NCBI GenBank assembly: GCA_963755995.1
Contig: CAVWLQ010000002.1
Coordinates: 53,028 to 117,027 of the forward strand
Direction: 5' to 3'
Length of the DNA stretch: 64,000 bases
Source of the DNA: an uncultured Chloroflexia bacterium
Lineage (GTDB): Bacteria > Chloroflexota > Limnocylindria > Limnocylindrales > CSP1-4
The position numbers and the translations under genes are program-made. Below the pieces are notes generated by a model. The model made no database searches. It was not told the origin of the DNA and was given only the letters and a program-made list of their open reading frames with translations. Shown here one piece after another: positions 5,398-53,490 of the stretch; within the stretch, counting starts at the first letter, position 1; each line of letters opens with the position of its first letter.

Positions 5398-6620
5398 CCG
5401 CGGCCGTCGATCGGGTCGAGATCGCGATCGTCGGCGGCGGGCCGGCGGGCGCCGTTCTGGCGGCCCGGCTGGCGAGCGCCGGTCTGGAGGTCGTCGTCTT
5501 CGAGCGCTCGCCGGCCTGGCACTGGCGCGCGGGCGGCGTCTTCGCCTCGCCCGCAGCCGTCGCGGCGCTCGGGCGAGGTGGGCTCGATCCGGTGATCCTG
5601 GCCGAGGTGGCCCGACCGATCCCGGCGATGCGCGTGGAGCCGCCGGGCGGCACCGCGTTCCGCCTGACCTACGGCACCGAGACCGGCGGACCGCCCGCCG
5701 TCGGGTTCGACCGTTCGCGGCTGGATCCGCTCCTGCTCGCGCGAGCGGCCGCTGCCGGTGCAGAGGTCCGGGCCGGCTGGACGGTCACCGCGACCGAGCC
5801 GGCTGCCGGTCGCCTCGAGGTCCGCGATCCGGGCGGACGGTCGGTCGGCGTCCGCGCGTCGGTCGTGGTCGGCGCGGACGGGCCCCACTCGGTCGTGGCC
5901 CGCGGCGCCGGGGTCGCCCGCCCGGTCCGGCTCGACCCGCGGATCGGCCTGACCTATCACCTCGCCGACGACGACCCGACGGCGTGCCGCGACGCCCGGA
6001 TGCGGATCCTGCGCGATGGCTACGTCGGGATCGCGCCCGTGCCGGGCGGGCGGGTCAACGTCGGGATCGTGCTCGGCCGGTCGTGGCGCCCTGCTCTGGC
6101 CCGGGACGGGGCGCGCGCGGTCGTGGATTCGATCGTCGCGGCGATCCCGCCAACGGCCGACGACGCCGCCACGTGGCGCGCAGGACCGCCGCTCGACGCC
6201 GTCGCCGGCGCGTCGCCCCTGGGCCACCGGGTCACCCGACGCGCGGGTCACGGCTGGCTCCTCGTCGGCGACGCGGCGGGCTTCCTGGACCCGTTCACGG
6301 GCGAGGGTCTTCACCGGGCGCTTGTCTCCGCGGAGCTGGCGGCCGGCGCGATCCTGGCGCGTGGGCGCGGCGGTCACGCAGCCGACACGGCGCCCTTCGC
6401 GGCCTACGAGCGGGCGATGCAGCGCCGCTTCCTGGCCAAGGACGGCGTGTCGTGGCTCGTCCAGGCCTTTCTCGGGCGCCCGGCGCTGTTCGATTACGCC
6501 GCCAGGCGGGTCGCCGCGCGGCCGGCCGTCCGTGCGACCATGGGTCTCGTGATGGGCGACCTCGTTCCGGCCGGCCGCGCGCTCGACCCGCGCTTCCTTG
6601 CCGCGCTCCTCGCGCCATGA
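5394..6620 (+). CDS. FAD-dependent oxidoreductase (geranylgeranyl-reductase/aromatic monooxygenase-like)
   Basis: IVGGGPAG, VGADG and LVGDAAGFLDPFTGEG motifs; ATGA overlap with the upstream gene. Confidence 0.9.
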   Translation: MTAAVDRVEIAIVGGGPAGAVLAARLASAGLEVVVFERSPAWHWRAGGVFASPAAVAALGRGGLDPVILAEVARPIPAMRVEPPGGTAFRLTYGTETGGPPAVGFDRSRLDPLLLARAAAAGAEVRAGWTVTATEPAAGRLEVRDPGGRSVGVRASVVVGADGPHSVVARGAGVARPVRLDPRIGLTYHLADDDPTACRDARMRILRDGYVGIAPVPGGRVNVGIVLGRSWRPALARDGARAVVDSIVAAIPPTADDAATWRAGPPLDAVAGASPLGHRVTRRAGHGWLLVGDAAGFLDPFTGEGLHRALVSAELAAGAILARGRGGHAADTAPFAAYERAMQRRFLAKDGVSWLVQAFLGRPALFDYAARRVAARPAVRATMGLVMGDLVPAGRALDPRFLAALLAP

Positions 6621-7111
6621 CCGGCGACGGACGGACGCGTGTCGGGGCCTATGCGATCTGCCTCGACGAGTCCGGCCGGATCCTGCTGTGCCGGATCGCG
6701 CCCGCGGTCAAGCCGGGCGAGTTCTGGACACTGCCCGGGGGCGGGCTCGAGTTCGGGGAACGCCCGGCCATGGCCGTGCTGCGGGAGCTGACCGAGGAGA
6801 GCGGCTACACGGGCGAGATCATCGAGCTGGCCGACGTATCGGATCGCCTGTTCCCGGGTCCGATCGACGGCCTCGAGGGGCGGATGCACGCGATCCGGAT
6901 CGTGTACCGCGTCCGGATCGCCGGCGGCACGTTGCGCGACGAGGTGGACGGCTCGACCGACACGTGCGCCTGGTTCACGCCCCAGGCGGCGGCCCGCCTG
7001 CACCTCGCCGAGCTTGCCCGACGTGCGCTCCGGTCGATCGCGGCCGGCCGCGTGCCGGCGACGCCGCGCGCGGCCATCGTGACAACGCCCGCCCCCGACC
7101 CGGCCGGCTGA
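6617..7111 (+). CDS. NUDIX hydrolase
   Basis: Nudix box GGGLEFGE-x6-RELTEESG; ATGA overlap. Confidence 0.88.
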   Translation: MTGDGRTRVGAYAICLDESGRILLCRIAPAVKPGEFWTLPGGGLEFGERPAMAVLRELTEESGYTGEIIELADVSDRLFPGPIDGLEGRMHAIRIVYRVRIAGGTLRDEVDGSTDTCAWFTPQAAARLHLAELARRALRSIAAGRVPATPRAAIVTTPAPDPAG

Positions 7112-7121
7112 GGACCAGCCG

Positions 7122-7625
7122 ATGCACAGCACGATCATGCTCGACATCGCCGCCCCGGCCGACCTCGTCTTCGACCTCGCCCGTGACCCGCGCCGGTGGG
7201 AGCGGCTGCTCCCCCACTACGTGCGCTCGCACGCCGTGGACGTGCGGGCCGACGCGGTCGTGATCGACTTCGTGGCCCGCCGGCCGTTCCCGCTCGTCGG
7301 CGTCCTGGGGCTCGGCCTGCCGGTGGCCTGGCGTGCGCGCACGTGGAGCGAGCCGGCCACGCGACGGCTCCGTTTCGTGCACGTCGCCGGGGCAACCCGG
7401 GGGATGGACGTCACGTGGCGGATCGAGACACGCGGGCCGGCGGCGTGTCACGTGGCGATCGACCACGACTTCCGCCCGCGCATCGCGCTCTTCGCGGCGT
7501 TCGTCGACCGCGCCTTCACGCGGCCGATCGCGGGCCGGACGCTGGGCACGTTCCGCGCCCTCGCGGAGGCGCTGGCCGACGAGCGGCGATCCGATGCCTC
7601 GGCCGAGACGGAGGGACCGGCATGA
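7122..7625 (+). CDS. SRPBCC/START-fold polyketide cyclase/aromatase-like protein
   Basis: IAAPADLVFDLARDPRRWERLLPHY N-terminus and GMDVTWRI motif; GAGG RBS. Confidence 0.8.
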   Translation: MHSTIMLDIAAPADLVFDLARDPRRWERLLPHYVRSHAVDVRADAVVIDFVARRPFPLVGVLGLGLPVAWRARTWSEPATRRLRFVHVAGATRGMDVTWRIETRGPAACHVAIDHDFRPRIALFAAFVDRAFTRPIAGRTLGTFRALAEALADERRSDASAETEGPA

Positions 7626-25884: not shown

Positions 25885-28062
25885 ATGGCCGCGATCGATC
25901 CCGGCGCACCCGCCCGCCCTGCCGTCGCGCCACGACCCCGTCGCGCCAGCCGCCCGAAGGTCACCTTCCCGTACCTGAACCGCGAGCTGTCCTGGCTCGA
26001 GTTCAATGCCCGCGTCCTGCACGAGGCGCGCGACGAGCGCAACCCGCTGCTCGAACGGGTGAAGTTCCTGGCCATCTTCGCGGGCAACCTCGACGAGTTC
26101 TTCCAGGTGCGGGTCGCCGGCCTGCGCCAGCAGGTGGAGGCGCGCAAGGTCGCCCGCTCGCCGGACGGCCGGACCGCAGACGAGCAGCTGGCGGCGGTGC
26201 GCGAGCGCGTGCTCGGGCTCGTGGCCGACCATTCGGCGATCTTCCTGTCGGTTCGCCGGACTCTGGCCGCCGAGGGCGTGGAGCTGCTCGACTACGCCAG
26301 CATCCCGGAGCATCACGAGGCGCTCCGCCGGCGGTTCCTCGACGAGATCTTCCCCGTCCTGACGCCGCTCGCCGTCGATCCCGGCCATCCGTTCCCGTAC
26401 ATCTCGACCCTCAGCCTCTCGATCGCCGTCGGGCTGCGCGACCCGGAGACCGGCGAGCGCGGCTTCGCCCGGGTCAAGGTCCCGCAGATCCTGCCCCGTC
26501 TGCTCGAGGTCGAGCCGTCCCGCTTCGTCCTGCTCGACCAGGTCATCGAGGCCAACCTCGACGCGCTGTTCAGCGGCATGGAGGTCGAGGAGCACCACCT
26601 CTTCCGGGTCACCCGCAACGCCGACTTCGAGATCGAGGAGGACGAGGCGGACGACCTCCTCCTGGCGATCGAGGAGGAGCTTCGGCGGCGGCGCTTCGGC
26701 GCCGCGGTCCGGCTCGAGGTCGAGCGGTCGATGCCGGCCGCCACCCGAGCCCTGTTGCTGCGCGGCCTGGGGCTCGGCGAGGCCGACTGCTACGAGGTCA
26801 GCGGGATGCTCGACCTGACCGGGCTGTGGGCGATCGCCGACCTCGACCGGCCCGACCTCAAGCCCGTGCCGTGGTCGCCGGTCACCCCGCCCCGGCTGAT
26901 CCCGCCCGACGAGGACGAGCCGGCCGACGTCTTCGCGGCGATCCGGGCGGGCGACATCCTCGTCCACCATCCGTACGAGTCGTTCGCCGCGTCGACCGAG
27001 CGGTTCATCACCCAGGCCGCCAACGATCCCGACGTCCTGACCATCAAGCAGACGCTCTACCGCACCTCGGGCGACTCGCCCATCGTCCAGTCGCTGATCA
27101 GGGCCGCCGAGCGCGGCAAGCAGGTCGTCGTCCTGGTCGAGATCAAGGCCCGCTTCGACGAGGAGGCCAACATCGTCTGGGCGCGCAAGCTGGAGCGTGC
27201 CGGCGCACACGTCGTGTACGGGCTGGTCGGCCTCAAGACGCACTCGAAGACGGCCCTCGTCGTCCGACGCGAGGGGTCCGGCCTGCGGCGCTACGTCCAC
27301 ATCGGGACCGGCAACTACAACCCGAAGACGGCGCGCCTGTACGTGGACCTCGGCCTGCTGACCTGCCGGCCCGAGATCGGCGCGGACGTGACCGACCTGT
27401 TCAACAACCTGACCGGGCTCTCGCGTCAGCGGACGTTCCGCCGGCTGCTCGTCGCGCCGCACAGCCTGCGTCCGCGGTTCCTCGACCTGGTCGATCGCGA
27501 GGTCGGCCATGCGGCGTCCGGACGGCCGGCCCGGATCGTCCTCAAGCTCAACGCGATCGTCGACGTGGCCGTCATCGAGGCGCTGTATCGGGCGTCGAAC
27601 GCGGGCGTCTCGATCGACCTGATCATCCGGGGCGCCTGCTCGATCCAGCCCGGTCTGCCCGGCGTGTCCGAGAACATCCGGGTCCGCTCCATCATCGGCG
27701 AGTTCCTCGAGCATTCGCGGATCTGGAGCTTCGACAACGGCGGCGAGCGCGAGTGGTACATCGGCTCCGCGGACCTGATGGATCGCAACCTGGACCGGCG
27801 GGTGGAGGCGGTCGCCCCCGTCGAGGATTTCGACGCCCAGGTGCGGCTGGCCCAGATCATCGACGTGATGCTCGCCGACGACCGGCGCTCATGGCAGCTC
27901 AAGCCGGATGCCACCTGGGTCCGGACGGAGACCCTCGAGGGACGCGAGGGCACGATCGACACCTTCGAGGTGCTCAAGGAGGATGCATTGGCCAACGGCA
28001 GCGTCGTGACGACCCCCCACCGACCGGCCGCCGGCGCCGGCTCGCTGGACCCGCGCGCGTGA
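25885..28062 (+). CDS. ppk1: Polyphosphate kinase 1
   Basis: NRELSWLEFNARV, NLDEFFQVRVAGL, HHPYESF (phospho-His), KQTLYRTS, KARFDEE, GTGNYN, FLEHSRI, SADLMDRNLDRRVE. Confidence 0.97.
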   Translation: MAAIDPGAPARPAVAPRPRRASRPKVTFPYLNRELSWLEFNARVLHEARDERNPLLERVKFLAIFAGNLDEFFQVRVAGLRQQVEARKVARSPDGRTADEQLAAVRERVLGLVADHSAIFLSVRRTLAAEGVELLDYASIPEHHEALRRRFLDEIFPVLTPLAVDPGHPFPYISTLSLSIAVGLRDPETGERGFARVKVPQILPRLLEVEPSRFVLLDQVIEANLDALFSGMEVEEHHLFRVTRNADFEIEEDEADDLLLAIEEELRRRRFGAAVRLEVERSMPAATRALLLRGLGLGEADCYEVSGMLDLTGLWAIADLDRPDLKPVPWSPVTPPRLIPPDEDEPADVFAAIRAGDILVHHPYESFAASTERFITQAANDPDVLTIKQTLYRTSGDSPIVQSLIRAAERGKQVVVLVEIKARFDEEANIVWARKLERAGAHVVYGLVGLKTHSKTALVVRREGSGLRRYVHIGTGNYNPKTARLYVDLGLLTCRPEIGADVTDLFNNLTGLSRQRTFRRLLVAPHSLRPRFLDLVDREVGHAASGRPARIVLKLNAIVDVAVIEALYRASNAGVSIDLIIRGACSIQPGLPGVSENIRVRSIIGEFLEHSRIWSFDNGGEREWYIGSADLMDRNLDRRVEAVAPVEDFDAQVRLAQIIDVMLADDRRSWQLKPDATWVRTETLEGREGTIDTFEVLKEDALANGSVVTTPHRPAAGAGSLDPRA

Positions 28063-29843
28063 GCGCAGCCGTCGAGCGCCCCGTCGAGGTCGAGCTCAAG
28101 TACCGGGTCGTCGACCTCGCCGTCGCCGAGCGCTACCTGGTGGCCGAGGAGATCGGCTCATTCAGCGGCACCGCCGCGCCGCGCTCGTCGCAGCTCGAGG
28201 ACCGCTACGTCGACACTGCGGACGGGGCGATGACCCGGGCCGGGTTCGCCGTCCGGTTGCGGCGCTCGGGAAAGGGCACGATCGTGTCGGTCAAGTCTCT
28301 CGCCCGGACGGACGGTCCGGGTGGCTCGGTCCGGCGCGAAGAGCTCGAAGGTCCGGCAGACCGGACGGCCGGGCCGCTCGACTGGCCCGCGTCGGACGCC
28401 CGCTCGCTCGTCCTCGAGCTGGCCGGCGACGCACCGCTGGTGGAGCTCGTGACCATCCGGCAGCTGCGACGCAAGCGGGTCGTCCGCGACGGCGACACGC
28501 GGGTCGAGCTGAGCCTCGACGAGGTCGACGTCGTGTCGCGCTCCCGCGTCGTCGACCGGTTCGTGGAGCTCGAGGCGGAGCTGGTCCGCGGCGCCGAGGA
28601 GCGGCTGACCTCCCTGGCCGACGTCTTCGCCGCGGATCATGCCCTGGCGCCCGCCAGCGGCAGCAAGTTCGAGGCGGCGATGGAAGCGGTCCGAACGGGC
28701 TCGCGCCGGCGCCGCGGTGGATCCGCCGCCGGGGCGGAGGACGAGGTCGCCGAGCAGCCCGACGACGCCGAAGACCGCGAGACCGAGGCCGAGGCCACGT
28801 CCGCCGAGCCCGCGTCCGCCGAGCACGAGCCGATCGGCGCCGTCGCGACCACGTCCGACGTCGTCGACGAGGCGATCGAGGAGGCGACGAGCCAGGACGC
28901 GCGCCTCGTTGTCGGTCGGAACCCCGGGGTGACCGCCGACGACCACGTGGCCGAGGCCGGCCGCAAGGTCATGCGCTTCCACCTCGCCCGGATGCTCGCC
29001 CGTGAGGCCGGCACCCGCGAGGGGTCGGACCCCGAGGATCTCCACGCGATGCGCGTCGCCACCCGCCGCCAGCGCGCCGCCTGGCGCGTCTTCGGGGCGT
29101 CGTTCCGGCCGGCCCGCACGAAGCGCTACCGCAATGGCCTGCGCGAGATCGCGTCACGGCTCGGTGCGGTTCGCGACCTCGACGTGCTGCTCGAGGCGGC
29201 CGACCTGTACCGGGCGGACCTGCCGGTCAGCGAGCAGCGCGCGATCGAGCCGCTCCTGTCCGACTGGCGCGAGCACCGTGACGACGCGCGCGTCCTGCTC
29301 ATCCGCGAGCTGGACTCGGACGGCTACCGGCGGTGGGTCGACGACTACCGCGATTTCGTCCGGACCGAGGGCGCTGCGGTGGTCCCGGTCCTGCCGACCC
29401 AGCCGCACCGGGTCCGAGACACCGCCGGTTCCCGGATCTGGACCGCCTACGAGCAGATGCGCGGCTACGAGCCCGTCCTGCGCTGGGCGGACGTCGAGAC
29501 GCTCCACGAGCTGCGGATCGCCGGCAAGTGGCTGCGCTACACGCTCGAGTTCGTGCGCGAGGCGCTCGGCGATGACGCGGCGCCGCTGATCGCCCGCGTG
29601 ACCGCCCTTCAGGACCACCTGGGCCTGATGAACGACGCGGACGTGTCGGCGTCGATGGCCCGGACGTTCCTCGTCGAGCACGCGGGCGACCTGTCCGGTC
29701 TCGAGAGCGCGGCCATCGGGCGCTACCTGATCAGCCGCGAGCGCGAGGTCGCCCGGTTGCGGCGGAGCATCGGGGCACCGTGGCGCGGCGTGGCCGGTGT
29801 CACGTTCCGGCGGACGCTCGGGCGGGTCGTCGCCAAGCTGTAA
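28059..29843 (+). CDS. CYTH (triphosphate tunnel) plus CHAD domain protein with acidic linker
   Basis: EVELKY (ExExK) and ELEAEL in CYTH; LHAMRVATRRQR, LGAVRDLDV, LHELRIAGKWLRY, LQDHLGLMND in CHAD; GTGA overlap with ppk1. Confidence 0.92.
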   Translation: MSAAVERPVEVELKYRVVDLAVAERYLVAEEIGSFSGTAAPRSSQLEDRYVDTADGAMTRAGFAVRLRRSGKGTIVSVKSLARTDGPGGSVRREELEGPADRTAGPLDWPASDARSLVLELAGDAPLVELVTIRQLRRKRVVRDGDTRVELSLDEVDVVSRSRVVDRFVELEAELVRGAEERLTSLADVFAADHALAPASGSKFEAAMEAVRTGSRRRRGGSAAGAEDEVAEQPDDAEDRETEAEATSAEPASAEHEPIGAVATTSDVVDEAIEEATSQDARLVVGRNPGVTADDHVAEAGRKVMRFHLARMLAREAGTREGSDPEDLHAMRVATRRQRAAWRVFGASFRPARTKRYRNGLREIASRLGAVRDLDVLLEAADLYRADLPVSEQRAIEPLLSDWREHRDDARVLLIRELDSDGYRRWVDDYRDFVRTEGAAVVPVLPTQPHRVRDTAGSRIWTAYEQMRGYEPVLRWADVETLHELRIAGKWLRYTLEFVREALGDDAAPLIARVTALQDHLGLMNDADVSASMARTFLVEHAGDLSGLESAAIGRYLISREREVARLRRSIGAPWRGVAGVTFRRTLGRVVAKL

Positions 29844-29858
29844 TCGCGATCCGCCGCC

Positions 29859-30791
29859 CTAGGCTCGCCAGCCGTGGGCCAGGTCCACGAGGCTGTCCCG
29901 CCACGCCGGGCCGGCATGATCAACGGCGAGGATCGCGCCCTCCCGGACGCCGGCCTCCGAGACGCGGAGCCGATCCGCGCCGTACGTCTCGAGGATCGCG
30001 TCCACGATCGCCGCGCCGGCCGGCAGGATCCGGGCGCGGATGGGATTGATCAGGTGCCGTTCGGACGCGATCGCCGCCGGCTCGGCGGCGAGGATCGCCA
30101 GCACCTCCGCGATCCGCTCGCGCGTGAGGGTTCGATCGAGCATCGCGGCAGGGAGCACCTTGAGCAGGTTCGACGCGGTGCCACCGACCGCGACGATCTC
30201 GCTGGGGTGGGCCGCCGGGGCGCCGGCGATGACCTCGCGGGCCGCGGCATGCATCGCGGCGACCTCGGCGGGCGTCGCCGGATCGTGCGTGACGAACCGG
30301 TCGCTGAGTCGGGCGGACCCAAGCTGGAGACCCGTCGCTCGCGGACGGTGGGTCGGGTCGACGATGCAGAACTCGCAGCTGCCGCCGCCGACGTCGATCA
30401 CGAGGGTCTCCTGGGTGACCGGCATGCCCTCGGTGACGCCGATGATGGTCAGGTACGCCTCCTCGGCATGAGTCAGGACGTGGACCGGCGCCCCGGCCGC
30501 GGCGAACACCTCCCGGACGACCGCGGCCGCGTCGGCGGCCCGGCGGATCGGCTCGGTGCCGAGGAACGTGATGCCGGTCGCGCCGAGGCGAGCGGCCGTG
30601 TCCGCGTATCGGACGAGAACGGCCGTCAGCTCGCCGCGGCGGGCACGACCCAGGTAGCCGCGCTCGTCGACGGCCGTGCCGAGACCGAGGAAGACCGACT
30701 CGTCGACCAGCGGCTGGAGCCGGTGGCCGGCGACGACGGCGGCAACGAGATGGACCGAGTTGGACCCGATGTCGACCGCCGCGCCGACCAC
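29859..30791 (-). CDS. ppx: Ppx/GppA exopolyphosphatase, short form without HD domain
   Basis: DIGSNSVHL, TEPIRRA, EEAYL, DVGGGSCE, GGTASNL, GVREG. Start uncertain (GTG chosen). Confidence 0.85.
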   Translation of the reverse strand: MVGAAVDIGSNSVHLVAAVVAGHRLQPLVDESVFLGLGTAVDERGYLGRARRGELTAVLVRYADTAARLGATGITFLGTEPIRRAADAAAVVREVFAAAGAPVHVLTHAEEAYLTIIGVTEGMPVTQETLVIDVGGGSCEFCIVDPTHRPRATGLQLGSARLSDRFVTHDPATPAEVAAMHAAAREVIAGAPAAHPSEIVAVGGTASNLLKVLPAAMLDRTLTRERIAEVLAILAAEPAAIASERHLINPIRARILPAGAAIVDAILETYGADRLRVSEAGVREGAILAVDHAGPAWRDSLVDLAHGWRA

Positions 30792-30840
30792 GGGGCCGGG
30801 CGTGAGGGACGGGTCGACGGTCGCCTGGGTCGTGATGTCG

Positions 30841-31974
30841 TCAGGAGGGGGCGTCGTCGGGACCAGCGGAGGCCGGACGAAGGGACCTCCGCGCTGGCGA
30901 TCGGGTCGTGGATCGAGGGGTGGCCGGCTTGCTGGTCGGCGTCTTGGGCTTGGCGGCGGTCGATGCCGGCTTCCCGGCGGCCGGCGCCCGCTTGGCCGTC
31001 GACCGCGTGCGGGTCGCTGCGGGCTTGCGGGTCGTGGCAGGTTTGGCGGCCGCCTTCGCCGGCGTCCCGGTCGTTGCGGGCTTGGTGGTCGCTGTCCTGG
31101 CGGTCGGGGGCTTCGCGGCAGAGGCAGGCTTGCGAGCGGTGGTGGTCCGTCGTGCGGGGGCCGGCTTCGCGGATGCGACGGGCGTCGAGGGTGTGGTCCC
31201 TGCAGGCGTCCTGGCGGGGGCCGCTGCCGTCGTCGTCGCGACTGCTGCCGGCGTGGCGGCGGTCGCCGCGGTTGCGGGTGTCGCCGCGGTCGTCGGCTTC
31301 GCCGCGGTCGCCGGCTTCGCGGCGGTCGTCCGCTTCGCGGGTGACGTCGGCTTCCGGGCAGTCGCCGGCTTGCGCGGCGACGCAGATGCCGGGGCCTTCG
31401 ACGCGGCCGATGCTGGCGTCGCGGCCGTTGGAGCCGCGGTCGCGGCCCTCGAAGCGGCAGGTGCACGCCGGGTCGTCGCCGGCTTCCGCGTGCTCGCGGA
31501 TCGAGTCGCTCGCGCGGCGGTCGCCCGTTTCGTCCGCCGCGTCGTGGCTCGCGGGGTGGTGGCCCGCGGGGTGGTGGCGCGCGGCGCCGGCGCGGGCGCA
31601 GGTGCCAACGTCGCGGTCGCAGTCGGCGGTGCAGCCGTGACCGCGGCCGATCCGGCTGCCTCGGCTGCGGCCCGTTGCAGCTTGGCCGCCAGCGACGAGA
31701 CCTCCTTGGCCGCCTCGGTGGCCTGACGCGTTCGCTTCCCGACCTGCTTGCGGCCCTTGGTCGCCTCGGCTGCCTGCAATTGCCGGAGACGCTTCGCCTC
31801 GGTCTTGCGCGCGGCAGCGAGCTTCTTCTCGAGCTTGTGCAGCTCCTTCGCCGTGCGACCGGACACCGGGGTCACGGTGCCGTCGGCGTCGACGATGACA
31901 TCGGTGACGGTCTCGACGCCGCCCCCGCGCGGTCCTTCGGCCCGTTTCGACGGCTTGTCGCCTCGCTTGGCCAT
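30841..31974 (-). CDS. Basic Lys/Arg/Ala/Pro/Thr-rich low-complexity protein (histone H1/AlgP-like tail after a coiled coil)
   Basis: GGAGG RBS; N-terminal helical/coiled-coil region, then repeats RATTP x3, AAKPAT, RKPA; lies in an operon between the metallophosphoesterase and ppx. Confidence 0.7.
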   Translation of the reverse strand: MAKRGDKPSKRAEGPRGGGVETVTDVIVDADGTVTPVSGRTAKELHKLEKKLAAARKTEAKRLRQLQAAEATKGRKQVGKRTRQATEAAKEVSSLAAKLQRAAAEAAGSAAVTAAPPTATATLAPAPAPAPRATTPRATTPRATTRRTKRATAARATRSASTRKPATTRRAPAASRAATAAPTAATPASAASKAPASASPRKPATARKPTSPAKRTTAAKPATAAKPTTAATPATAATAATPAAVATTTAAAPARTPAGTTPSTPVASAKPAPARRTTTARKPASAAKPPTARTATTKPATTGTPAKAAAKPATTRKPAATRTRSTAKRAPAAGKPASTAAKPKTPTSKPATPRSTTRSPARRSLRPASAGPDDAPS

Positions 31975-31990
31975 GCGGATCGACCTCCGT

Positions 31991-32866
31991 TCAGCGGCGC
32001 GCGATGCGCGCACCCTCGTAGAGCAGCGTGGGCCGGCCGGTCGACACGGACCGTCGCCAGATCGCAAGTCTGCCATGTTCGTCGAGGATCTCGAGATAGC
32101 TGGCGTCACGCCGTCCGTCGTTGACGAGCGCCCCGGCGCTGGCGATGACGACCGTCCCGCGGCCGTCGGACAGCTGCCAGGCGTTGGCCCGGTGGATGTG
32201 GCCGTGGAGGGCGAGGTCCACCTCGAGGTCGGTCAGGAGGGCCAGCACGTCGCCCGAGCGATGGGTCAGGTCACCGTCGCGGAGCTTCCGGCCCGGGACC
32301 GGCAACAGGCCGTGGTGCAGCGCGAAGATCCGCAGCGCCCCCGGCCGGGCGCGGCGCAGCTCCCGAGCAGCGCGCTCCAGCGATTCGGACCGGAGCCGCG
32401 GCGTCGAGTTGACCGCGACGACGTGGACGTCGGTGCCCCGATGCCCACCGGCGAGACTCCCGAACCGCGCGATCCAGGCCTCCTCCGGGTCGTCGCCACT
32501 GGAGGCGTCACCGTCCCCGATCTCGCGTCCCGTCTCGTCGAACCCGAGCGTCAGCGCGGGCTCGAGCGCCAGGAAATAGTCGAGATCCGAATCGACCGGC
32601 AACGGTCGCGCGTCGCCGGGTGGTCCGACCGACCGCTCGAGGTCGCGATTGCCGGGGATGACGACGCGCGGGATCGAGCCGAAGCGCGCCAGCTCGGCCG
32701 CGACCTCGTCGAGCTCGGACGGACGGCCGTCGGCCGACAGGTCGCCGGTGACGACGACGAGGTCGGGCGCGCGTGCGAGAGCCGAGTCCACGAGCGAGCG
32801 CAGGGCGCGCCGCAGCTCGGGCGAGCCATCGAAGTGGAAGTCGGAGAGGTGGACGATCCGGGTCAT
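31991..32866 (-). CDS. Calcineurin-like metallophosphoesterase
   Basis: SDFH, TGDL, PGNRD, LHH, HGHIH metal-binding motifs. Confidence 0.88.
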   Translation of the reverse strand: MTRIVHLSDFHFDGSPELRRALRSLVDSALARAPDLVVVTGDLSADGRPSELDEVAAELARFGSIPRVVIPGNRDLERSVGPPGDARPLPVDSDLDYFLALEPALTLGFDETGREIGDGDASSGDDPEEAWIARFGSLAGGHRGTDVHVVAVNSTPRLRSESLERAARELRRARPGALRIFALHHGLLPVPGRKLRDGDLTHRSGDVLALLTDLEVDLALHGHIHRANAWQLSDGRGTVVIASAGALVNDGRRDASYLEILDEHGRLAIWRRSVSTGRPTLLYEGARIARR

Positions 32867-33573
32867 GCGGACACCGGCTGGCCGGCTCGCCCACCCGGCC
32901 GTGCGTCGGCGCGCGCGGCCAGGACCGAATCCGCCGCCCGGAGCACGCGCTGGCCGACCTGCTCGATCGGGTCGGCTGCGCGGATGCGGGTGAAGCCACC
33001 GGGACCCGCATACCGGTCGAAACAGGCGTAGAGGCGCCCGGCGAACAGCCGGTAGCTCTCGCGCAGGTCTGCCGACAGCCCGACGTCGAGACCTGCCTCG
33101 TACGGATCCGGATCGTCGACGTGTCGGGCCAGGGACGCCTCGGCGTCGACGTCGAGGAACAGCACGGCGTCCGGCGCCGGCACGAACGCGAACAGGGCAT
33201 CGAGCCAGGCGCCGTCCACGCCGCGGGCCTCGGCTCGCGCCATCGGGGTCCAGCAGTACCGGTCGGCGAGCACGACGAGACCGGCGCGCAGGGCGGGCAT
33301 GACCACCTGCTCGACGCGCTCGGCCAGGTCCGCGGCGTAGAGGAGCGCCGTCTCGGTCGGGTCCGCCTCGCGATCGCGTTTCGCGCGTCGGATCCGATCC
33401 CCGCTCAGGAGCGAGCTTGCGAGCGACGTCCGGGCGACGCCCCGACCGGCATAGCGCAGGTGTTCGTCGAGGCGTCGGAGATGGGTCGAGCGGCCCGACC
33501 GGTCGATCCCCTCGAGGACGAACAGCACACCGGGCTGGCCGTGGGCGCCGGGCCGGGCAGACGGCGTCGTCAT
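32863..33573 (-). CDS. Thymidylate-kinase-like P-loop protein (B)
   Basis: EGIDRSGRST P-loop variant, LLYAAD, VLADRY, PDAVLFLDV, YEAGLD.GLS motif. Confidence 0.8.
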   Translation of the reverse strand: MTTPSARPGAHGQPGVLFVLEGIDRSGRSTHLRRLDEHLRYAGRGVARTSLASSLLSGDRIRRAKRDREADPTETALLYAADLAERVEQVVMPALRAGLVVLADRYCWTPMARAEARGVDGAWLDALFAFVPAPDAVLFLDVDAEASLARHVDDPDPYEAGLDVGLSADLRESYRLFAGRLYACFDRYAGPGGFTRIRAADPIEQVGQRVLRAADSVLAARADARPGGRAGQPVSA

Positions 33574-33578
33574 GGTCC

Positions 33579-34262
33579 TCACCGGCCGGCGGGCATCCGC
33601 GGCGTCCCCGGCCGCCTCGGGCCCCCGGAACGGCCGACGGTCGGCGCGGTCAGCATCGGCCGGATGGCCTCTCGGATCGTGGCGACGCGGACACCGGGAT
33701 CGGTCCGTGGATCGATGACGAGGGCGTCCACCGGCCACGGCTCGGTCGCCCCATCCTCCAGCAATCCCTCGTAGGCGGCCATCAGGCGTTCCAGGAACGC
33801 GGCATAGGCCAGCGCCACTGCCTCGCCGCGGGCGGCGGACGGTCGCGTCGCGATCGCGCGGGCCAAGGCGGCCGCCGGTTCCTGGCGATGGAACAGAACG
33901 AGGTCCGGGCGCGGCGCGAACCGGTACAGGGACGCGATCCAGGCCGGGTCGAGGCCGCGCGCCACCTCGCGGGCAACGGCGGTCCAGACATAGCGGTCGG
34001 CCAGCACGACGTCGCCGCGGGCCAGCGGCCGCTCGATCTCCACCGCGATCCGGCGAGCGGCCTCCGACGCAGCCAGCAGGGCCGCGACCCGGGGCGTGAG
34101 AGCCTGCCGTCCACCCGGCATGCCGGCGGCGCGGGCCACCACGCGCGAGGGTCGCCATGTCACCAGGTGGACGCGGCGACCCTTCCGCTCCAGCCACCGC
34201 GCGACGCCGTCGAGACCGGCCGACTTGCCGGATCCATCCAGGCCCTCGGCCGCGATCAACAC
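33579..34262 (-). CDS. Thymidylate-kinase-like P-loop protein (A)
   Basis: AEGLDGSGKS P-loop, VLADRYVWT..AR..ARG, PDLVL. Confidence 0.8.
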   Translation of the reverse strand: MLIAAEGLDGSGKSAGLDGVARWLERKGRRVHLVTWRPSRVVARAAGMPGGRQALTPRVAALLAASEAARRIAVEIERPLARGDVVLADRYVWTAVAREVARGLDPAWIASLYRFAPRPDLVLFHRQEPAAALARAIATRPSAARGEAVALAYAAFLERLMAAYEGLLEDGATEPWPVDALVIDPRTDPGVRVATIREAIRPMLTAPTVGRSGGPRRPGTPRMPAGR

Positions 34263-34372
34263 CCGACGACCCGGTCGAGACGCAGTGCTGGCACGCCTTC
34301 GATGCTAGCGCGTGGGCGCCGGCGCCGACGGCTGCCCGGCGCCGACGGCTCCGCCGCCGCTATCCTCCAGGC

Positions 34373-34744
34373 ATGCCGCTGATCCTCATCGGCCTCGGCG
34401 GCTTCGCCGGCGCGATCTCGCGCTACCTCGTCGACGGCTTCGTCGTCGAGCGCACGGGGGCGGCGTTCCCGTGGGGCACCCTGGTGGTGAACCTCACCGG
34501 CTCGTTCGTGCTCGGCCTGCTGTTCGCCCTCACCGCCGAGCGGGCCATCCTGCCGGCGGACATCCGCGGTCCCGTGATGGTCGGCTTCATCGGCGCCTAC
34601 ACGACGTTCTCGACCTACATGCTCGAATCGTGGGCCCTCCTCGAAGGCGGCTCGTGGGCGCCGGCCCTGGCGAACCTCGGCGGCTCGGTGATCCTCGGCC
34701 TGGTGGCCGTCGCGGCCGGCCTGGCGGTGGGCCGGGCGCTCTGA
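34373..34744 (+). CDS. crcB: Fluoride channel Fluc/CrcB
   Basis: GGFAGAISRY, FPWGTLVVNLTGSF, GFIGAYTTFST; TATCCT 6 nt upstream of the ATG. Confidence 0.93.
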   Translation: MPLILIGLGGFAGAISRYLVDGFVVERTGAAFPWGTLVVNLTGSFVLGLLFALTAERAILPADIRGPVMVGFIGAYTTFSTYMLESWALLEGGSWAPALANLGGSVILGLVAVAAGLAVGRAL

Positions 34745-34763
34745 GGCCGCGCACGGCCGGATC

Positions 34764-34802
34764 GTTAACGATCCGCTAACCCACGACGCATCGCCCGTTC
34801 AT
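34764..34802 (+). promoter_or_regulatory. Putative PHO box (11-bp-phased direct repeats) upstream of pstS
   Basis: GTTAAC (34764), GCTAAC (34775) and GTTCAT (34797) are in 11-bp register and resemble OmpR/PhoP-type GTTCA(C) half-sites. Confidence 0.5.
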
Positions 34803-34894
34803 GACGGGCCGCGATGGTGTCCTCGTCAAGTGAAAGGAACCGCAATGTCCCAGAACCGCCGTGCCCCAGCGGCGGCCACGAGGAGGATCATCGA

Positions 34895-36073
34895 GTGATC
34901 ACGACCCCCAGGCGCCTCGGTGCGCTCACGCTGATCGCGGCAATCGGCCTGAGCGCCTGCTCGAGCAGCGCCGCCTCGACGTCGCCCGCCGCGTCAGTCG
35001 CGGCCCCGACCACGGCGACCAGCCTGGCGCCCTCGACCGGCGACGCATCGGCCGGCCCGAGCATGGCGGCAGCACCGGTGCCGCCGTCGGCCTCGATCAC
35101 GCTCCAGGGCGCGGGCGCCACCTTCCCGGCACCGCTCTACGACAGCTGGTTCCAGGCATTCAACGGCGTCTACCCGAACGTCCAGATCGACTACCAGGCC
35201 AACGGCTCGGGGGCGGGCATCAAGGCCATCACAGAGGGGACCGTCGACTTCGGCGCTTCCGACGCAGCGATGAAGGACGAGGAGATCGCGGCCCTGCCAT
35301 CCGGCGCCAAGATGCTCCACTTTCCCACCGCCCTTGGCGCGGTGGTGATGATCTACAACCTGCCGGACACGCCCAAGCTCCAGCTCGACTCGGCCAACAT
35401 CGCCGGGATCTACCTGGGCACGATCAAGAAGTGGAACGACCCCGCCATCGCGGCCAATAACGCGGGCGTGACACTGCCTGACCTGGACATCCTCGTCGTC
35501 CACCGCTCGGACGGCTCGGGGACGACCAACGCCTTCACGACCTACCTCGACACGGTCGACCCCACCTGGCACTCGACCGTGGGCAAGGGCAAGGAGGTCA
35601 AGTGGCCCACAGGTATCGGCGCGGCCGGAAACGACGGCGTCGCGACCGCGGTCAAGCAGACGCCGGGCGCGGTCGGATACGTCGAGCTGAACTATGCATC
35701 GGCCACGAAGCTGACTTCTGCCTACGTCAAGAATGCGGACGGGGCCTTCGTGCCCGGCTCGACCGACGGTGTCACGGCCGCTGCCGAGGCAGCCCTCGCG
35801 GACTTCCCCGCCGACTTCCGCCAGGCCCCGATCATCAACGGCGCCGGTGCGGACACCTACCCGATCGCCTCGTACACGTACCTGCTCGTCTACCAGGATC
35901 AGGCGAACGCGGACAAGGGCCAGACGCTCGTCTCGTTCTTGTACTGGGCGCTGACCGACGGTCAGGCGACGGAAGCCTCGCTGGGGTACGCGCCTCTACC
36001 CAAGGAAGTCCAGGAGAAGGCGCTGACCGAGCTCCACCTCGTCACGACCGGCGGCTCGCCGATCTGGCCCTGA
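34895..36073 (+). CDS. pstS: Phosphate ABC transporter substrate-binding lipoprotein
   Basis: AGGAGG RBS; lipobox LSAC; GAGATFPAPLY, GSGAGI, DFGASD, HRSDGSGTT, YPIASYTY. Confidence 0.96.
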   Translation: MITTPRRLGALTLIAAIGLSACSSSAASTSPAASVAAPTTATSLAPSTGDASAGPSMAAAPVPPSASITLQGAGATFPAPLYDSWFQAFNGVYPNVQIDYQANGSGAGIKAITEGTVDFGASDAAMKDEEIAALPSGAKMLHFPTALGAVVMIYNLPDTPKLQLDSANIAGIYLGTIKKWNDPAIAANNAGVTLPDLDILVVHRSDGSGTTNAFTTYLDTVDPTWHSTVGKGKEVKWPTGIGAAGNDGVATAVKQTPGAVGYVELNYASATKLTSAYVKNADGAFVPGSTDGVTAAAEAALADFPADFRQAPIINGAGADTYPIASYTYLLVYQDQANADKGQTLVSFLYWALTDGQATEASLGYAPLPKEVQEKALTELHLVTTGGSPIWP

Positions 36074-36098
36074 CCTCCATCGCAGGTCGAGCGATCGA

Positions 36099-36137
36099 CG
36101 ATGTGGGTGCCCCGATCGGGTCGGGCACTCCACATCG
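36099..36137 (+). terminator. Imperfect stem-loop between pstS and pstC (partial terminator or mRNA stabiliser)
   Basis: CGATGTGG-GTGCCC...GGGCAC-TCCACATCG; typical position after a binding-protein gene. Confidence 0.5.
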
Positions 36138-36185
36138 GCTTGAGCCGAACGCTACCCTCGACAGACCGATGACAGGCAGGGATCG

Positions 36186-37139
36186 ATGACCCATTTGACG
36201 CTCGTCGCGCGCTCTCGCCAGGGGACCGGGCAGCTGGCGGATCGCGCCTTCCGCGGCTCGACCCGGTTCGCGGCGGGGACGGTCGGCGCGCTCCTGATCC
36301 TGATCGCGCTGCTTCTGATCTGGAACTCCCGTCTGACCTGGCAGACCTTCGGCCTGGCCTTCATCACCGGCGAGGTGTGGGATCCGGTCGCGGGCATCTA
36401 CGGGGCACTGCCGTTCATCGTCGGCACCGTCCTCTCGTCGCTCCTGGCGATCGCCATCGCGGCCCCCATCGGCATCTTCACCGCGATCTACCTCTCGGAG
36501 CTGGCGCCGGGTCGGGTGGCCACGCCGCTGACCTTCATGATCGAGCTGCTTGCCGCGATCCCGAGCGTCGTCATCGGCCTGTGGGGCGTCTTCATCCTGG
36601 CCCCCTTCCTGCGCGGAACGGTCGAGGCGTGGATCGTGTCGGTCTTCGGCTGGATCCCGTTCCTGGGTGGTCCGACCTACGGCATCGGCCTGTTCAGCGC
36701 AGGAGTGATCCTCACGATCATGGTCCTGCCGACCGTCGTCACCATCTCGCGCGAGGTCATCCAGGCGGTCCCAGGCTCGCAACGTGAGGCGATGTTCGCG
36801 CTCGGCGCGACACGTTGGGAGACGATCCGGCGGGCGGTGGTCCCGTATGCGAGGTCGGGAATCATCGGGGCGGTCATCCTCGGGCTTGGCCGGGCGCTCG
36901 GCGAGACGATGGCGGTGACGATGATCATCGGCAACAAGGACGCGATCCCGACCTCGTTGTTCGACCAGACCCAGACGATCGCCTCGAAGATCGCCACGAC
37001 CTTCAACGAGGCGCCGGCCGGGCTGCCGACCTCCAGCCTGATCGCCCTGGGGCTGATCCTGCTGGTCGTGACCGTGATCATGAACGTGGTCGCCCGCCTG
37101 CTCGTGTGGCGGGTCGCCGGTCCCGTGGGAGGCGACTGA
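36186..37139 (+). CDS. pstC: Phosphate ABC transporter permease
   Basis: [34 protein letters not shown]. Confidence 0.95.
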
Positions 37140-38020
37140 TGGCCGCCGCGAACCCGGCCCTGGTCAGCCGCCTCACCGCGACCGGCTCACACGGCCGCCG
37201 GCTGTGGGTCGACCGCGGCATGCGCACGGTGGCGCTCCTGGCGGCGCTGGCCTGCGTCATCCCGCTCGCCGCAGTGCTCATCTTCGTGACCATCAACGGC
37301 CTGGCCGCCCTCAACCTGGACCTGCTGACCAAGCCGTCGCGAGCCCAGGGCATCGGCGGTGGCGCATACGGGGCAATCCTCGGCACGATCCAGATGGTCG
37401 GCCTCGCCACGCTCATCGCGATCCCCTTCGGCGTCCTGGCCGGGATCTACGTCAACGAGTTCAGCTCGCAGCGCGCCGCCCGCGGCGTACGGTTCGCGGC
37501 GGACGTCCTCGTCGGGGTGCCGTCGATCCTGATCGGGATCTTCGTCTATACATTCCTCGTCCAGCCGTTCAAGCAGTACAACGCGTTCGCCGGCAGCGTC
37601 GCCCTGGCCGTGATCATGGTGCCGGTCATCATGCGCACGACCGAGGAGATCCTGAAGCTCGTCCCCGGCTCGCTCCGCGAGGCCTCCCTGGCGCTCGGGA
37701 TCCCGACCTGGCGGACCGTCCTGTCCGTCGCCGTCCGGACGGGGCTGCCCGGCATCCTGACCGGGATCATGCTCGCCGTCGCCCGGGCGGCCGGCGAGAC
37801 CGCGCCGCTGCTGTTCACGGCCCTCGGCAGCCGGCTCGTGAACGTCGGCGACTTCTCGAAGCCGATGGATGCCCTGCCCTTGTTCATCTTCGTCAACGCC
37901 CGGCAGCCGTACGAGCTGCAGAACCAGCAGGCCTGGGGTGCGGCGTTCCTGCTCTTGCTGTTCGTCCTCGTCGTCAACGTCCTCGTCCGCTTCCGGACCG
38001 CGGGACAGCGAGCCCGATGA
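37139..38020 (+). CDS. pstA: Phosphate ABC transporter permease
   Basis: [29 protein letters not shown]; TGATG overlap. Confidence 0.95.
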
Positions 38021-38937
38021 AGGAGCCCGATCCCGTGACCACCCAGCTGCGCGACCCATCTCCCAGGCCACCGGAGACGAAGGCCGACCCTTCGCCCGTG
38101 CAGGCCATGGCAGCGACCCGGACGGATGCGTCGGCGGCGCTATCGACCGGTACGGTCGAGCAAGCCTCGGGCCGGATCGACATCGACGGGCTGCACGTCT
38201 ACTACGGCGCCTTTCGAGCTGTGCGGGACATTTCTCTGACCGTCCAGCCGCATGCGATCACGGCGATCATCGGACCGTCCGGTTGCGGCAAGTCGACGTT
38301 CCTGCGAACCCTCAACCGGATGCACGAGCTGACTCCCGAGACGCGCGTCGAGGGATCCGTTCGGCTGGACGGCGAGGACATCTATGGCTCGGCGATCGAC
38401 CCGGTGGCACTGCGGCGGGTCGTCGGCATGGTCTTCCAACGGCCCAACCCGTTTCCCACGATGTCGATCTACGACAACGTCATCGCCGGGCTCCGGCTGA
38501 CCGGCCGGCCGAAGACTTCCACCTATGACGAAGTGGTCGAGCGATGTCTCCGTCGGGCCGCGCTGTGGGACGAGGTCAAGGACAAGCTCCGCCAGGGCGG
38601 CACGTCGCTGTCGGGTGGCCAGCAGCAGCGACTGTGCATCGCGCGGGCCCTCGCAGTCGACCCCGAGGTCATCCTGATGGACGAGCCGGCGTCCGCGCTG
38701 GACCCGGTCGCCACGCTCCGGATCGAGGAGCTGATGGCCGAGCTGCGCTCGAACTACACCATCGTGATCGTCACTCACAACATGCAGCAGGCCTCGCGGA
38801 TCAGCGACTACACGGCGTTCTTCACGATGGGTCCGGACCGGGCGGGCTACCTGGTCGAGATGGACCAGACCGTCCAGATCTTCACCAACCCGAGCCAGCA
38901 GCTGACCGAGGACTACGTCTCCGGCCGGTTCGGTTGA
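38017..38937 (+). CDS. pstB: Phosphate ABC transporter ATPase
   Basis: [47 protein letters not shown]-terminus. Confidence 0.96.

Positions 38938-52695: not shown

Positions 52696-53490
<795 letters not shown>

Follow-up and report, generated by a model that had tools for sequence, protein, structure and literature searches.

The closest described counterpart of the protein considered here is AlgP (AlgR3) of Pseudomonas aeruginosa, which has 352 amino acids (aa), a 124-aa helical N-domain, a disordered KPAA-rich C-domain and a net charge of +55; it is enriched on polyphosphate (polyP) granules, whose normal number and spacing depend on the AlgP tail (PMC9239181). The AlgP N-domain is a predicted antiparallel coiled coil and a short "tip" follows the disordered C-domain, and in cells without polyP the protein, which binds DNA, sits on the nucleoid (PMC11894788). 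PhaF, an AlgP paralogue of Pseudomonas, has a helical N-part and an H1-like tail, a proposed tether between a storage granule and the nucleoid (PMC9239181, PMC11894788). Experiments have shown that the CHAD module binds polyP and targets granules (PMC6537752), and CHAD "phosins" such as PptA are non-enzymatic proteins, encoded beside ppk or ppx, that bind polyP or granules (PMC6537752, PMC6771595). These articles are cited here and below for the content of excerpts. We analysed a gene for a basic, repeat-rich protein of 377 aa that lies directly upstream of ppx in a 64,000-nucleotide stretch of DNA, "the window", from an uncultured soil Chloroflexia bacterium of the Limnocylindrales (positions 53,028 to 117,027 of contig CAVWLQ010000002.1). 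We propose, with about an even chance of being right, that it encodes a polyP-binding polycation analogous to AlgP, but with no detectable homology to it, in a Limnocylindria polyP island.

Architecture and coding status of the basic protein

The protein is composed of 28.6% A, 17.8% T, 12.5% P, 10.6% R and 9.0% K, and has a net charge of +59. The original prediction, made from this DNA alone, had described a nearly acid-free K/R/A/P/T tail, and the counts bear this out: residues 116-377 (262 aa) include 20 K and 29 R, or 49 basic residues, against 2 D (373 and 374) and no E. A, T and P make up 70% of the tail (T, 22%), R outnumbers K, and the commonest distance between basic residues is 5. 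The AAKPAT and RKPA repeats that had been noted are present, but the supposed three copies of RATTP are two, followed by one RATTR. AAKP occurs five times, RKPA four times and KPAT six times, and KPAA once only (residues 317-320, from the translation). At the DNA level the arrays are imperfect (Tandem Repeats Finder: 15 nucleotides (nt) × 2.7, 18 nt × 5.4 and 21 nt × 2.4).

The N-terminal coiled coil of the original prediction appears as a helical hairpin in an AlphaFold2 model built on a 36-row alignment, with a predicted local distance difference test score (pLDDT) above 90 for approximately residues 41-100, a mean pLDDT of 77 and a predicted template modelling score of 0.55. A single-sequence model has a beta-hairpin at 25-28/34-37 and one long helix, 42-114. 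Both models are helical here, so the helical domain is robust, whereas the hairpin fold depends on the alignment-based model. The disorder suggested earlier for the tail agrees with the single-sequence model, in which it has a pLDDT of 35-47 and no secondary structure. The hairpin carries 18 K/R and 7 D/E. R62 is invariant, L48, L52, A55, K61, Q65, R81, Q84 and A88 are at least 90% conserved, and K80 is also among the best-conserved positions; the core pattern RKLEKRLaaARatEaKRLRQ ... KRxrQA, with the invariant R62, is present in the window protein. Positions 61-65 and 80-84 are approximately equidistant from the turn and, by helical geometry, should face each other; they may form a conserved basic patch.

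Several lines of evidence indicate that the gene is real and under purifying selection. Its frame runs without internal stops for 377 codons from an ATG at 31974, and the length and the good GGAGG ribosome-binding site reported earlier were both found again (Table 1). A GTG-started alternative of 422 aa is unlikely to mark the true start, because 10 of the 11 aligned relatives begin M-A-K/R behind a ribosome-binding-site-like GGAG/GAGG. The tail frame demanded closer scrutiny: local GC content is 74-80%, several long open reading frames (ORFs) overlap it in other frames, and codon-position GC alone cannot settle the matter because GC at second positions (GC2) is itself 0.90, at third positions (GC3) 0.82, the high GC2 being due to A, T and P codons, which have C at position 2. 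The frame is settled by four other observations. First, the same frame is open, with the same composition, in relatives that differ in sequence and length. Second, the ratio of non-synonymous to synonymous substitution rates (dN/dS), calculated against the closest relative (L062; 94% identity in Ppx), is 0.12 in the N-domain (115 codons) and 0.29 in the tail (243 aligned codons); this pair only was used, as remoter pairs (42-53% identity, low-complexity alignments) are unreliable. Third, the three tail indels found in independent short-read soil contigs (at 30996, 31136 and 31294) are each 3 nt long. Fourth, C-terminal tip motifs recur among the 69 complete homologues, with RRS-x-x-P followed by a D/G-rich end in 20, KPKPxA in 7 and NPPA in 6. 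One low-depth soil contig lacks 2 nt at 31877, which lies in the N-domain.

Charge is the property of the tail that is retained. A tail net charge of at least +10 was found in 62 of the 69 homologous ORFs that are complete and non-identical. When homologues with many atypical residues are set aside, the tails of the remaining 55 span 34-310 aa (median 192), and K and R together make up a fraction of 0.15-0.27. Because the filter treats D, E and Q as atypical, it favours non-acidic tails, and the unfiltered 62/69 is the figure to trust.

These results bear on the suggestion that no functional protein is encoded and that the ORF is fortuitous, or the remains of a gene in decay, in DNA of very high GC content; we consider this scarcely credible. 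It could draw on the long overlapping ORFs, on the failure of GC3 to single out the tail frame, and on the many relatives with frame-shifted tails: in about 12, the tail shifts to an R/P/G-rich or D/E/H-rich frame or runs into ppx (L011, L012, L063, L098, L101; P0005, P0014, P0025), and predicted "fusions" of 655-731 aa result, in which the Ppx sequence is garbled. The probable cause is false indels where long-read assemblies pass through GC-rich repeats, though real frameshifting is also possible. Against a non-functional frame stand both dN/dS values, the conserved start and ribosome-binding site, the maintained charge, the recurrent tips, the 3-nt indels, and the 53 profile clusters described below. 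Two long ORFs in other frames cross the tail, at 29859-31466 (minus strand, 535 aa) and 29874-31640 (plus strand, 588 aa). The 535-aa ORF is not coding in its added part, because it is merely the ppx frame extended upstream, with a GC3 of 0.61; gene callers could wrongly annotate ppx as a 535-aa protein.

Searches for known families were negative. The whole protein matched no model in Pfam (0 families at E ≤ 0.01) or NCBIfam, and the Pfam scans detected no winged helix, HC2 repeats, Sm or HU fold, nor a CHAD domain (PF05235). None of 11 N-domains matched the phasin model PF05597 even at E ≤ 10, and one of the 11 gave PF09361 at E = 0.11. The N-domain profile had 0 matches at E ≤ 10 among Protein Data Bank (PDB) chains; Foldseek with the hairpin model returned 0 PDB structures at E ≤ 0.001, only generic helical hairpins; and the ESM Atlas gave no usable match to residues 1-118. 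A word-indexed search with residues 1-115 found 4 close relatives only, and with the tail alone it found 0 at E ≤ 0.001 among 8000 scored candidates, as expected given the low complexity. The N-domain profile, run against 1.84 billion representative sequences, identified 92 clusters (E ≤ 1e-3), of which 53 reached E ≤ 1e-10 and 16 reached E ≤ 1e-30; the cluster sequences listed again combine a short helical N-part with a K/R/A/P/T tail. The N-domain alignments thus define what appears to be an unannotated hairpin family, confined almost wholly to one bacterial family. Searches of the open full-text literature, judged by titles and abstracts, turned up no account of the hairpin family or of a polycation gene fixed beside ppx.

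The likeness to AlgP goes beyond what had been proposed, in that the predicted three-part build is shared: a helical N-domain of approximately 110-125 aa, a long disordered C-domain in which A, P and basic residues abound, and a short atypical tip. Length (352 against 377 aa) and net charge (+55 against +59) are also close. All of these parts are predicted in the window protein, and in the excerpted AlgP articles the antiparallel coiled coil of the N-domain is likewise a prediction. The differences are equally plain. AlgP has 25 perfect KPAA repeats, whereas the window protein has no KPAA array and a T-rich tail in which R exceeds K; the gene described here has a fixed place beside ppx, whereas the AlgP excerpts mention no such linkage; and the host belongs to another phylum, Chloroflexota, with no homology in Pfam or NCBIfam scans. 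The earlier suggestion that the two proteins are not homologous is consistent with the lack of any match in those scans, phasin models included. We do not file the protein in the AlgP family, because it lacks the KPAA array and no homology was detected in those scans.

Other comparisons are more distant. PhaF resembles the window protein in that its N-part is folded and helical and its tail H1-like, but PhaF has a phasin N-domain and its polymer is polyhydroxyalkanoate, whereas the setting here is polyP and PF05597 was not found in the genome itself, as well as being unmatched by the N-domains. CHAD phosins are, like this protein, non-enzymatic and encoded beside ppk or ppx; they are folded helical bundles with a basic tunnel, whereas here CHAD is lacking and binding would be through a disordered tail. 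Eukaryotic linker histones and HU-type proteins with basic tails consist of a structured part and a disordered basic tail, and form condensates with polyanions. In Hfq a structured N-part bears a disordered C-terminal extension that forms condensates with polyanions (PMC11894788, excerpts), but the Sm, winged-helix and HU folds of these proteins were not detected here by Pfam.

Linkage to ppx and the polyP genes

The original prediction had tied the gene to the polyP enzymes, a link that homologues away from ppx or ppk would have contradicted; the linkage held. When loci were recovered by N-terminal profile search and their neighbours inspected, as had been suggested, adjacency to ppx recurred: ppx lies directly downstream, on the same strand, in 11/11, 29/30 (L013-L042) and 45/48 named loci, and the 4 loci without it (1 of the 30, 3 of the 48) are contigs that end too early. 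The family's other genera contribute 17 matches, of which 14 are immediately 5' of ppx on the same strand. One more (L058) is 1.6 kb from ppk1-CYTH-CHAD, with ppx not detected, and two (L052 and L059) are located elsewhere, away from polyP genes. More than 10 genera share this fixed position upstream of ppx.

The gene is as restricted in distribution as it is in position. The 48 named relatives are Chloroflexota metagenome-assembled genomes, many of them Candidatus Limnocylindria or Limnocylindrales. Within the class, the N-domain profile matched 46 of 401 genomes, including 26/28 in the window's genus and 43/137 in its family. The other families of the class gave 0/16, 0/92, 0/2 and, in the fourth, 2 weak matches in 153 genomes (total 2/263), neither of them near polyP genes. 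The window's own genome is 3.7 Mb in 7 contigs and 72.6% complete.

In the window, 49 nt separate the stop codon of the basic gene from the GTG of ppx (30791). The convergent CYTH-CHAD gene is found in 43 of the 48 named loci, and the remaining five are short contigs. The metallophosphoesterase and thymidylate-kinase-like (Tmk-like) genes stand beside the pair in just 12 of the 48; other loci have different genes upstream, frequently on the opposite strand. Because the upstream genes vary, the conserved unit is the basic gene plus ppx, facing CYTH-CHAD and ppk1. In the CYTH-CHAD protein, the linker (residues 223-300) carries 23 D/E against 4 K/R, and its gene is the single CHAD gene of the genome, as far as the 72.6%-complete assembly extends. 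The linker had been put forward earlier as a possible electrostatic partner of the basic protein; its acidity is confirmed, but no result connects the two. Scanning 29500-34800 for promoters and terminators gave 0 promoter-like sequences and 1 terminator-like sequence on the wrong strand, a result that is uninformative at such GC.

We interpret these facts as follows. The conserved charge of a tail that otherwise drifts, the basic hairpin, and the fixed place before a short Ppx argue for a long polyanion as the ligand and for a role in polyP turnover. The polyP role is supported by the presence in the same island of ppk1 and of the genome's only CHAD gene, and by 7 of 17 genomes that lack both a ppx-linked copy and a ppx orthologue (see below). 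The disordered, proline-rich, acid-free tail, with approximately one K/R per five residues, would bind polyP chains or granules multivalently by charge. The conserved basic hairpin would give the protein a folded element with which to self-associate or to contact a second ligand. As its gene is probably co-transcribed with that of the short Ppx, the protein may coat, condense or position polyP, and such coating or positioning would set the accessibility of the polymer to Ppx. Binding to polyP, localisation to granules, and effects on Ppx or the nucleoid are thus what we infer from its architecture and its place. The phase separation and the bridging to the nucleoid proposed earlier gained no support from these results.

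The enzyme encoded downstream is a short form: of two long-form models, with 496 and 513 positions, the window Ppx matches 9-297 and 14-303, respectively. With a Ppx of this kind, the polycation could possibly supply polyP affinity in trans, or shield the polymer. The genome has two Ppx/GppA genes, the window copy and one on another contig; the latter (G000:C6:13635-14468, minus strand) scores 168.9 bits with Pfam, the window copy 132.3.

The main competing explanation, which we judge unlikely, is that the protein is a general nucleoid-associated, linker-histone-like DNA-binding protein, and that its adjacency to ppx reflects co-regulation in the phosphate or stringent response. In its favour, Ppx/GppA-family enzymes can also act on pppGpp, and the genome has a second paralogue. 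The composition and disorder of the tail are like those of DNA-binding H1-like tails, some loci that lack polyP genes have the hairpin joined to a DUF5679 zinc ribbon (described below), and AlgP itself binds DNA and lies on the nucleoid in polyP-free cells (PMC11894788, excerpts). However, a core chromatin protein would not typically be limited to 47 of 169 genomes of its own family (those at least 90% complete) and to 2 weak matches in the other families, nor hold one place upstream of ppx in so many genera. It is this patchy distribution, tied to ppx, that sets the gene apart from those for housekeeping nucleoid proteins.

Binding to RNA or to ribosomes has to be considered as well. Arg-rich disordered tails bind RNA. 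A disordered RNA-binding region and a role in activating translation have been reported for PhaF (PMC12818456, abstract), so that an RNA-binding or ribosome-associated disordered protein would have a precedent. The neighbourhood holds no RNA or translation genes and the linkage is to polyP genes, and we regard this explanation as very unlikely.

Table 1. Coordinates of the basic gene, its parts and its neighbours in the window
Feature	Position	Strand	Basis and remarks
Basic-protein gene, 377 aa	30841..31974	-	Stop codon included; ORF and translation, kept in relatives
GGAGG ribosome-binding site	31984..31988	-	9 nt 5' of ATG; GGAG/GAGG-like site also in relatives
Residues 1-38, flexible basic/acidic leader, possible small beta-hairpin 25-28/34-37	31861..31974	-	Structure models; moderate conservation
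Residues 39-113, conserved helical hairpin (H39-72, turn K73-G74, H75-113)	31636..31860	-	Alignment and AlphaFold2
Residues 114-361, disordered A/T/P/R/K polycationic tail, imperfect repeats RATTP, AAKPAT, RKPAT	30892..31635	-	Composition, Tandem Repeats Finder, model, dN/dS, indels
Residues 362-377, C-terminal tip RRSLRPASAGPDDAPS, sole acidic residues of tail	30844..30891	-	RRS-x-x-P-type ending in 20/69 complete homologues
Short two-domain exopolyphosphatase (Ppx/GppA family), 310 aa	29859..30791	-	PF02541, 2.8e-38; probably co-transcribed
CYTH-CHAD protein (PF01928 + PF05235), acidic inter-domain linker	28065..29843	+	Convergent with ppx
Polyphosphate kinase 1 (ppk1), start codon not fixed	25900..28062	+	Family scan
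Calcineurin-like metallophosphoesterase	31991..32866	-	Stop 16 nt upstream of basic gene; family scan
Two tandem thymidylate-kinase-family genes	32863..34262	-	PF02223, 1.5e-21 and 5.7e-17; head of same-strand gene string

The Tmk-like/metallophosphoesterase block (31991-34262, minus strand) forms the head of the gene string that ends in the basic gene and ppx. Directly past the operon, at 34157-38937 (plus strand), are ORFs that, by eye, look CrcB-like or are candidates for pstS, pstC, pstA and pstB; if these readings are correct, the polyP island adjoins genes for high-affinity phosphate uptake.

Exceptions among the relatives

A number of observations weigh against the interpretation of the protein as a polyP-binding polycation. 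Two homologues (L028 and L036) have tails with a net charge of zero or below. In one genus (L048; G393:C3, approximately 5983-7356, plus strand) the same N-domain, again upstream of ppx, carries an acidic EP/TP-repeat tail. At the two loci away from polyP genes (L052:5836-6519, plus strand; L059:5746-6306, minus strand) a hairpin-like segment precedes a zinc ribbon of the DUF5679 type (PF18930, 1e-10 and 2.2e-10), and no ppk, ppx or CHAD gene lies within approximately 6 kb. The basic gene is co-oriented with ppx, not with ppk1. A polycation would, moreover, bind DNA or RNA as readily as polyP, and the case for polyP as the ligand consequently comes from gene linkage. Finally, ppx is found without the gene: at 6 of 10 such ppx loci there is no comparable upstream ORF, including two (L110 and L112) in the window's own genus, and Ppx therefore does not need the basic protein.

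Two remarks apply to the variants just listed. The L048 frame is doubtful past the repeats. The papers found for DUF5679, of which those listed concern viruses, describe no function for it.

The ppx loci come from an examination of 17 genomes without a ppx-linked copy, 14 of which had no profile match and 3 of which had unlinked or weak matches. A ppx orthologue (E ≤ 1e-30) was present in 10 and absent in 7. Upstream of ppx in L118 is a very divergent ORF with a helical part and a K/A/P tail, which matches the profile weakly (E = 3.6e-4), and in L117 the contig is too short to show the region. The 566-aa ORF of L111 (G042:C32, 1480-3177, minus strand) begins with a helical, K/A-rich segment, continues with an acidic P/E/A linker and ends in the Ppx domain (PF02541, residues 271-541), and in L113, of the same genus, PE repeats lie in the Ppx frame. 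The K/A-rich N-part of L111 was considered as a homologue of the hairpin and rejected, since hhalign gave a probability of 0.3 against the family alignment. As the fused segment is non-homologous, charged additions to this Ppx had separate origins, a hint that the enzyme tends to acquire them.

The fused form is relevant to a further explanation, that the protein is a dedicated accessory of Ppx, acting as a trans polyP-binding arm for the short enzyme or as an inhibitor that shields polyP, with no scaffolding or positioning role. The tight, conserved coupling to ppx fits an accessory, as does the size of Ppx, whose 310 aa match only the N-terminal 300 or so positions of the long-form models, and L111 provides an example of a charged extension joined to Ppx in frame. 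But L111's segment is unrelated to the hairpin by the test above, ppx dispenses with the basic gene at the loci just described, and positive evidence of contact with Ppx was not obtained; prediction of a complex between Ppx and the N-domain (1-115) scored 0.00 in two runs, which speaks for neither side. We consider a pure accessory role quite unlikely.

Implications for polyP biology

The variants can be combined with the polyP-binding proposal in a broader and more doubtful one. The gene may encode an independently evolved, operon-borne "polyphosphate histone", in which a modular hairpin stalk has had different C-terminal effectors attached to it: a polycationic tail, an acidic EP-repeat tail or a DUF5679 zinc ribbon. 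In its polycationic form, it would be the trans polyP-binding arm of the short Ppx and would decide whether the polymer is held in a protected condensate or fed to the enzyme. If this were true, the protein would be a convergent counterpart of AlgP, and the gene linkage would make the relation between polycation, polyP and enzyme directly testable.

The organisms are uncultured and the hairpin family is restricted to one bacterial family, which limits how far the finding reaches. Within those limits, the locus offers a ready-made set for reconstitution, namely Ppx, PPK1, the CHAD protein and the polycation, and the relatives provide natural controls in tails of very different length (34 to 310 aa), the acidic-tail variant and the Ppx-fusion variant. 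It would represent an independent, apparently non-homologous instance of the AlgP build in another phylum, encoded next to the polyP enzymes, and it bears on a question of bacterial cell biology: how charged disordered proteins shape polyP condensates.

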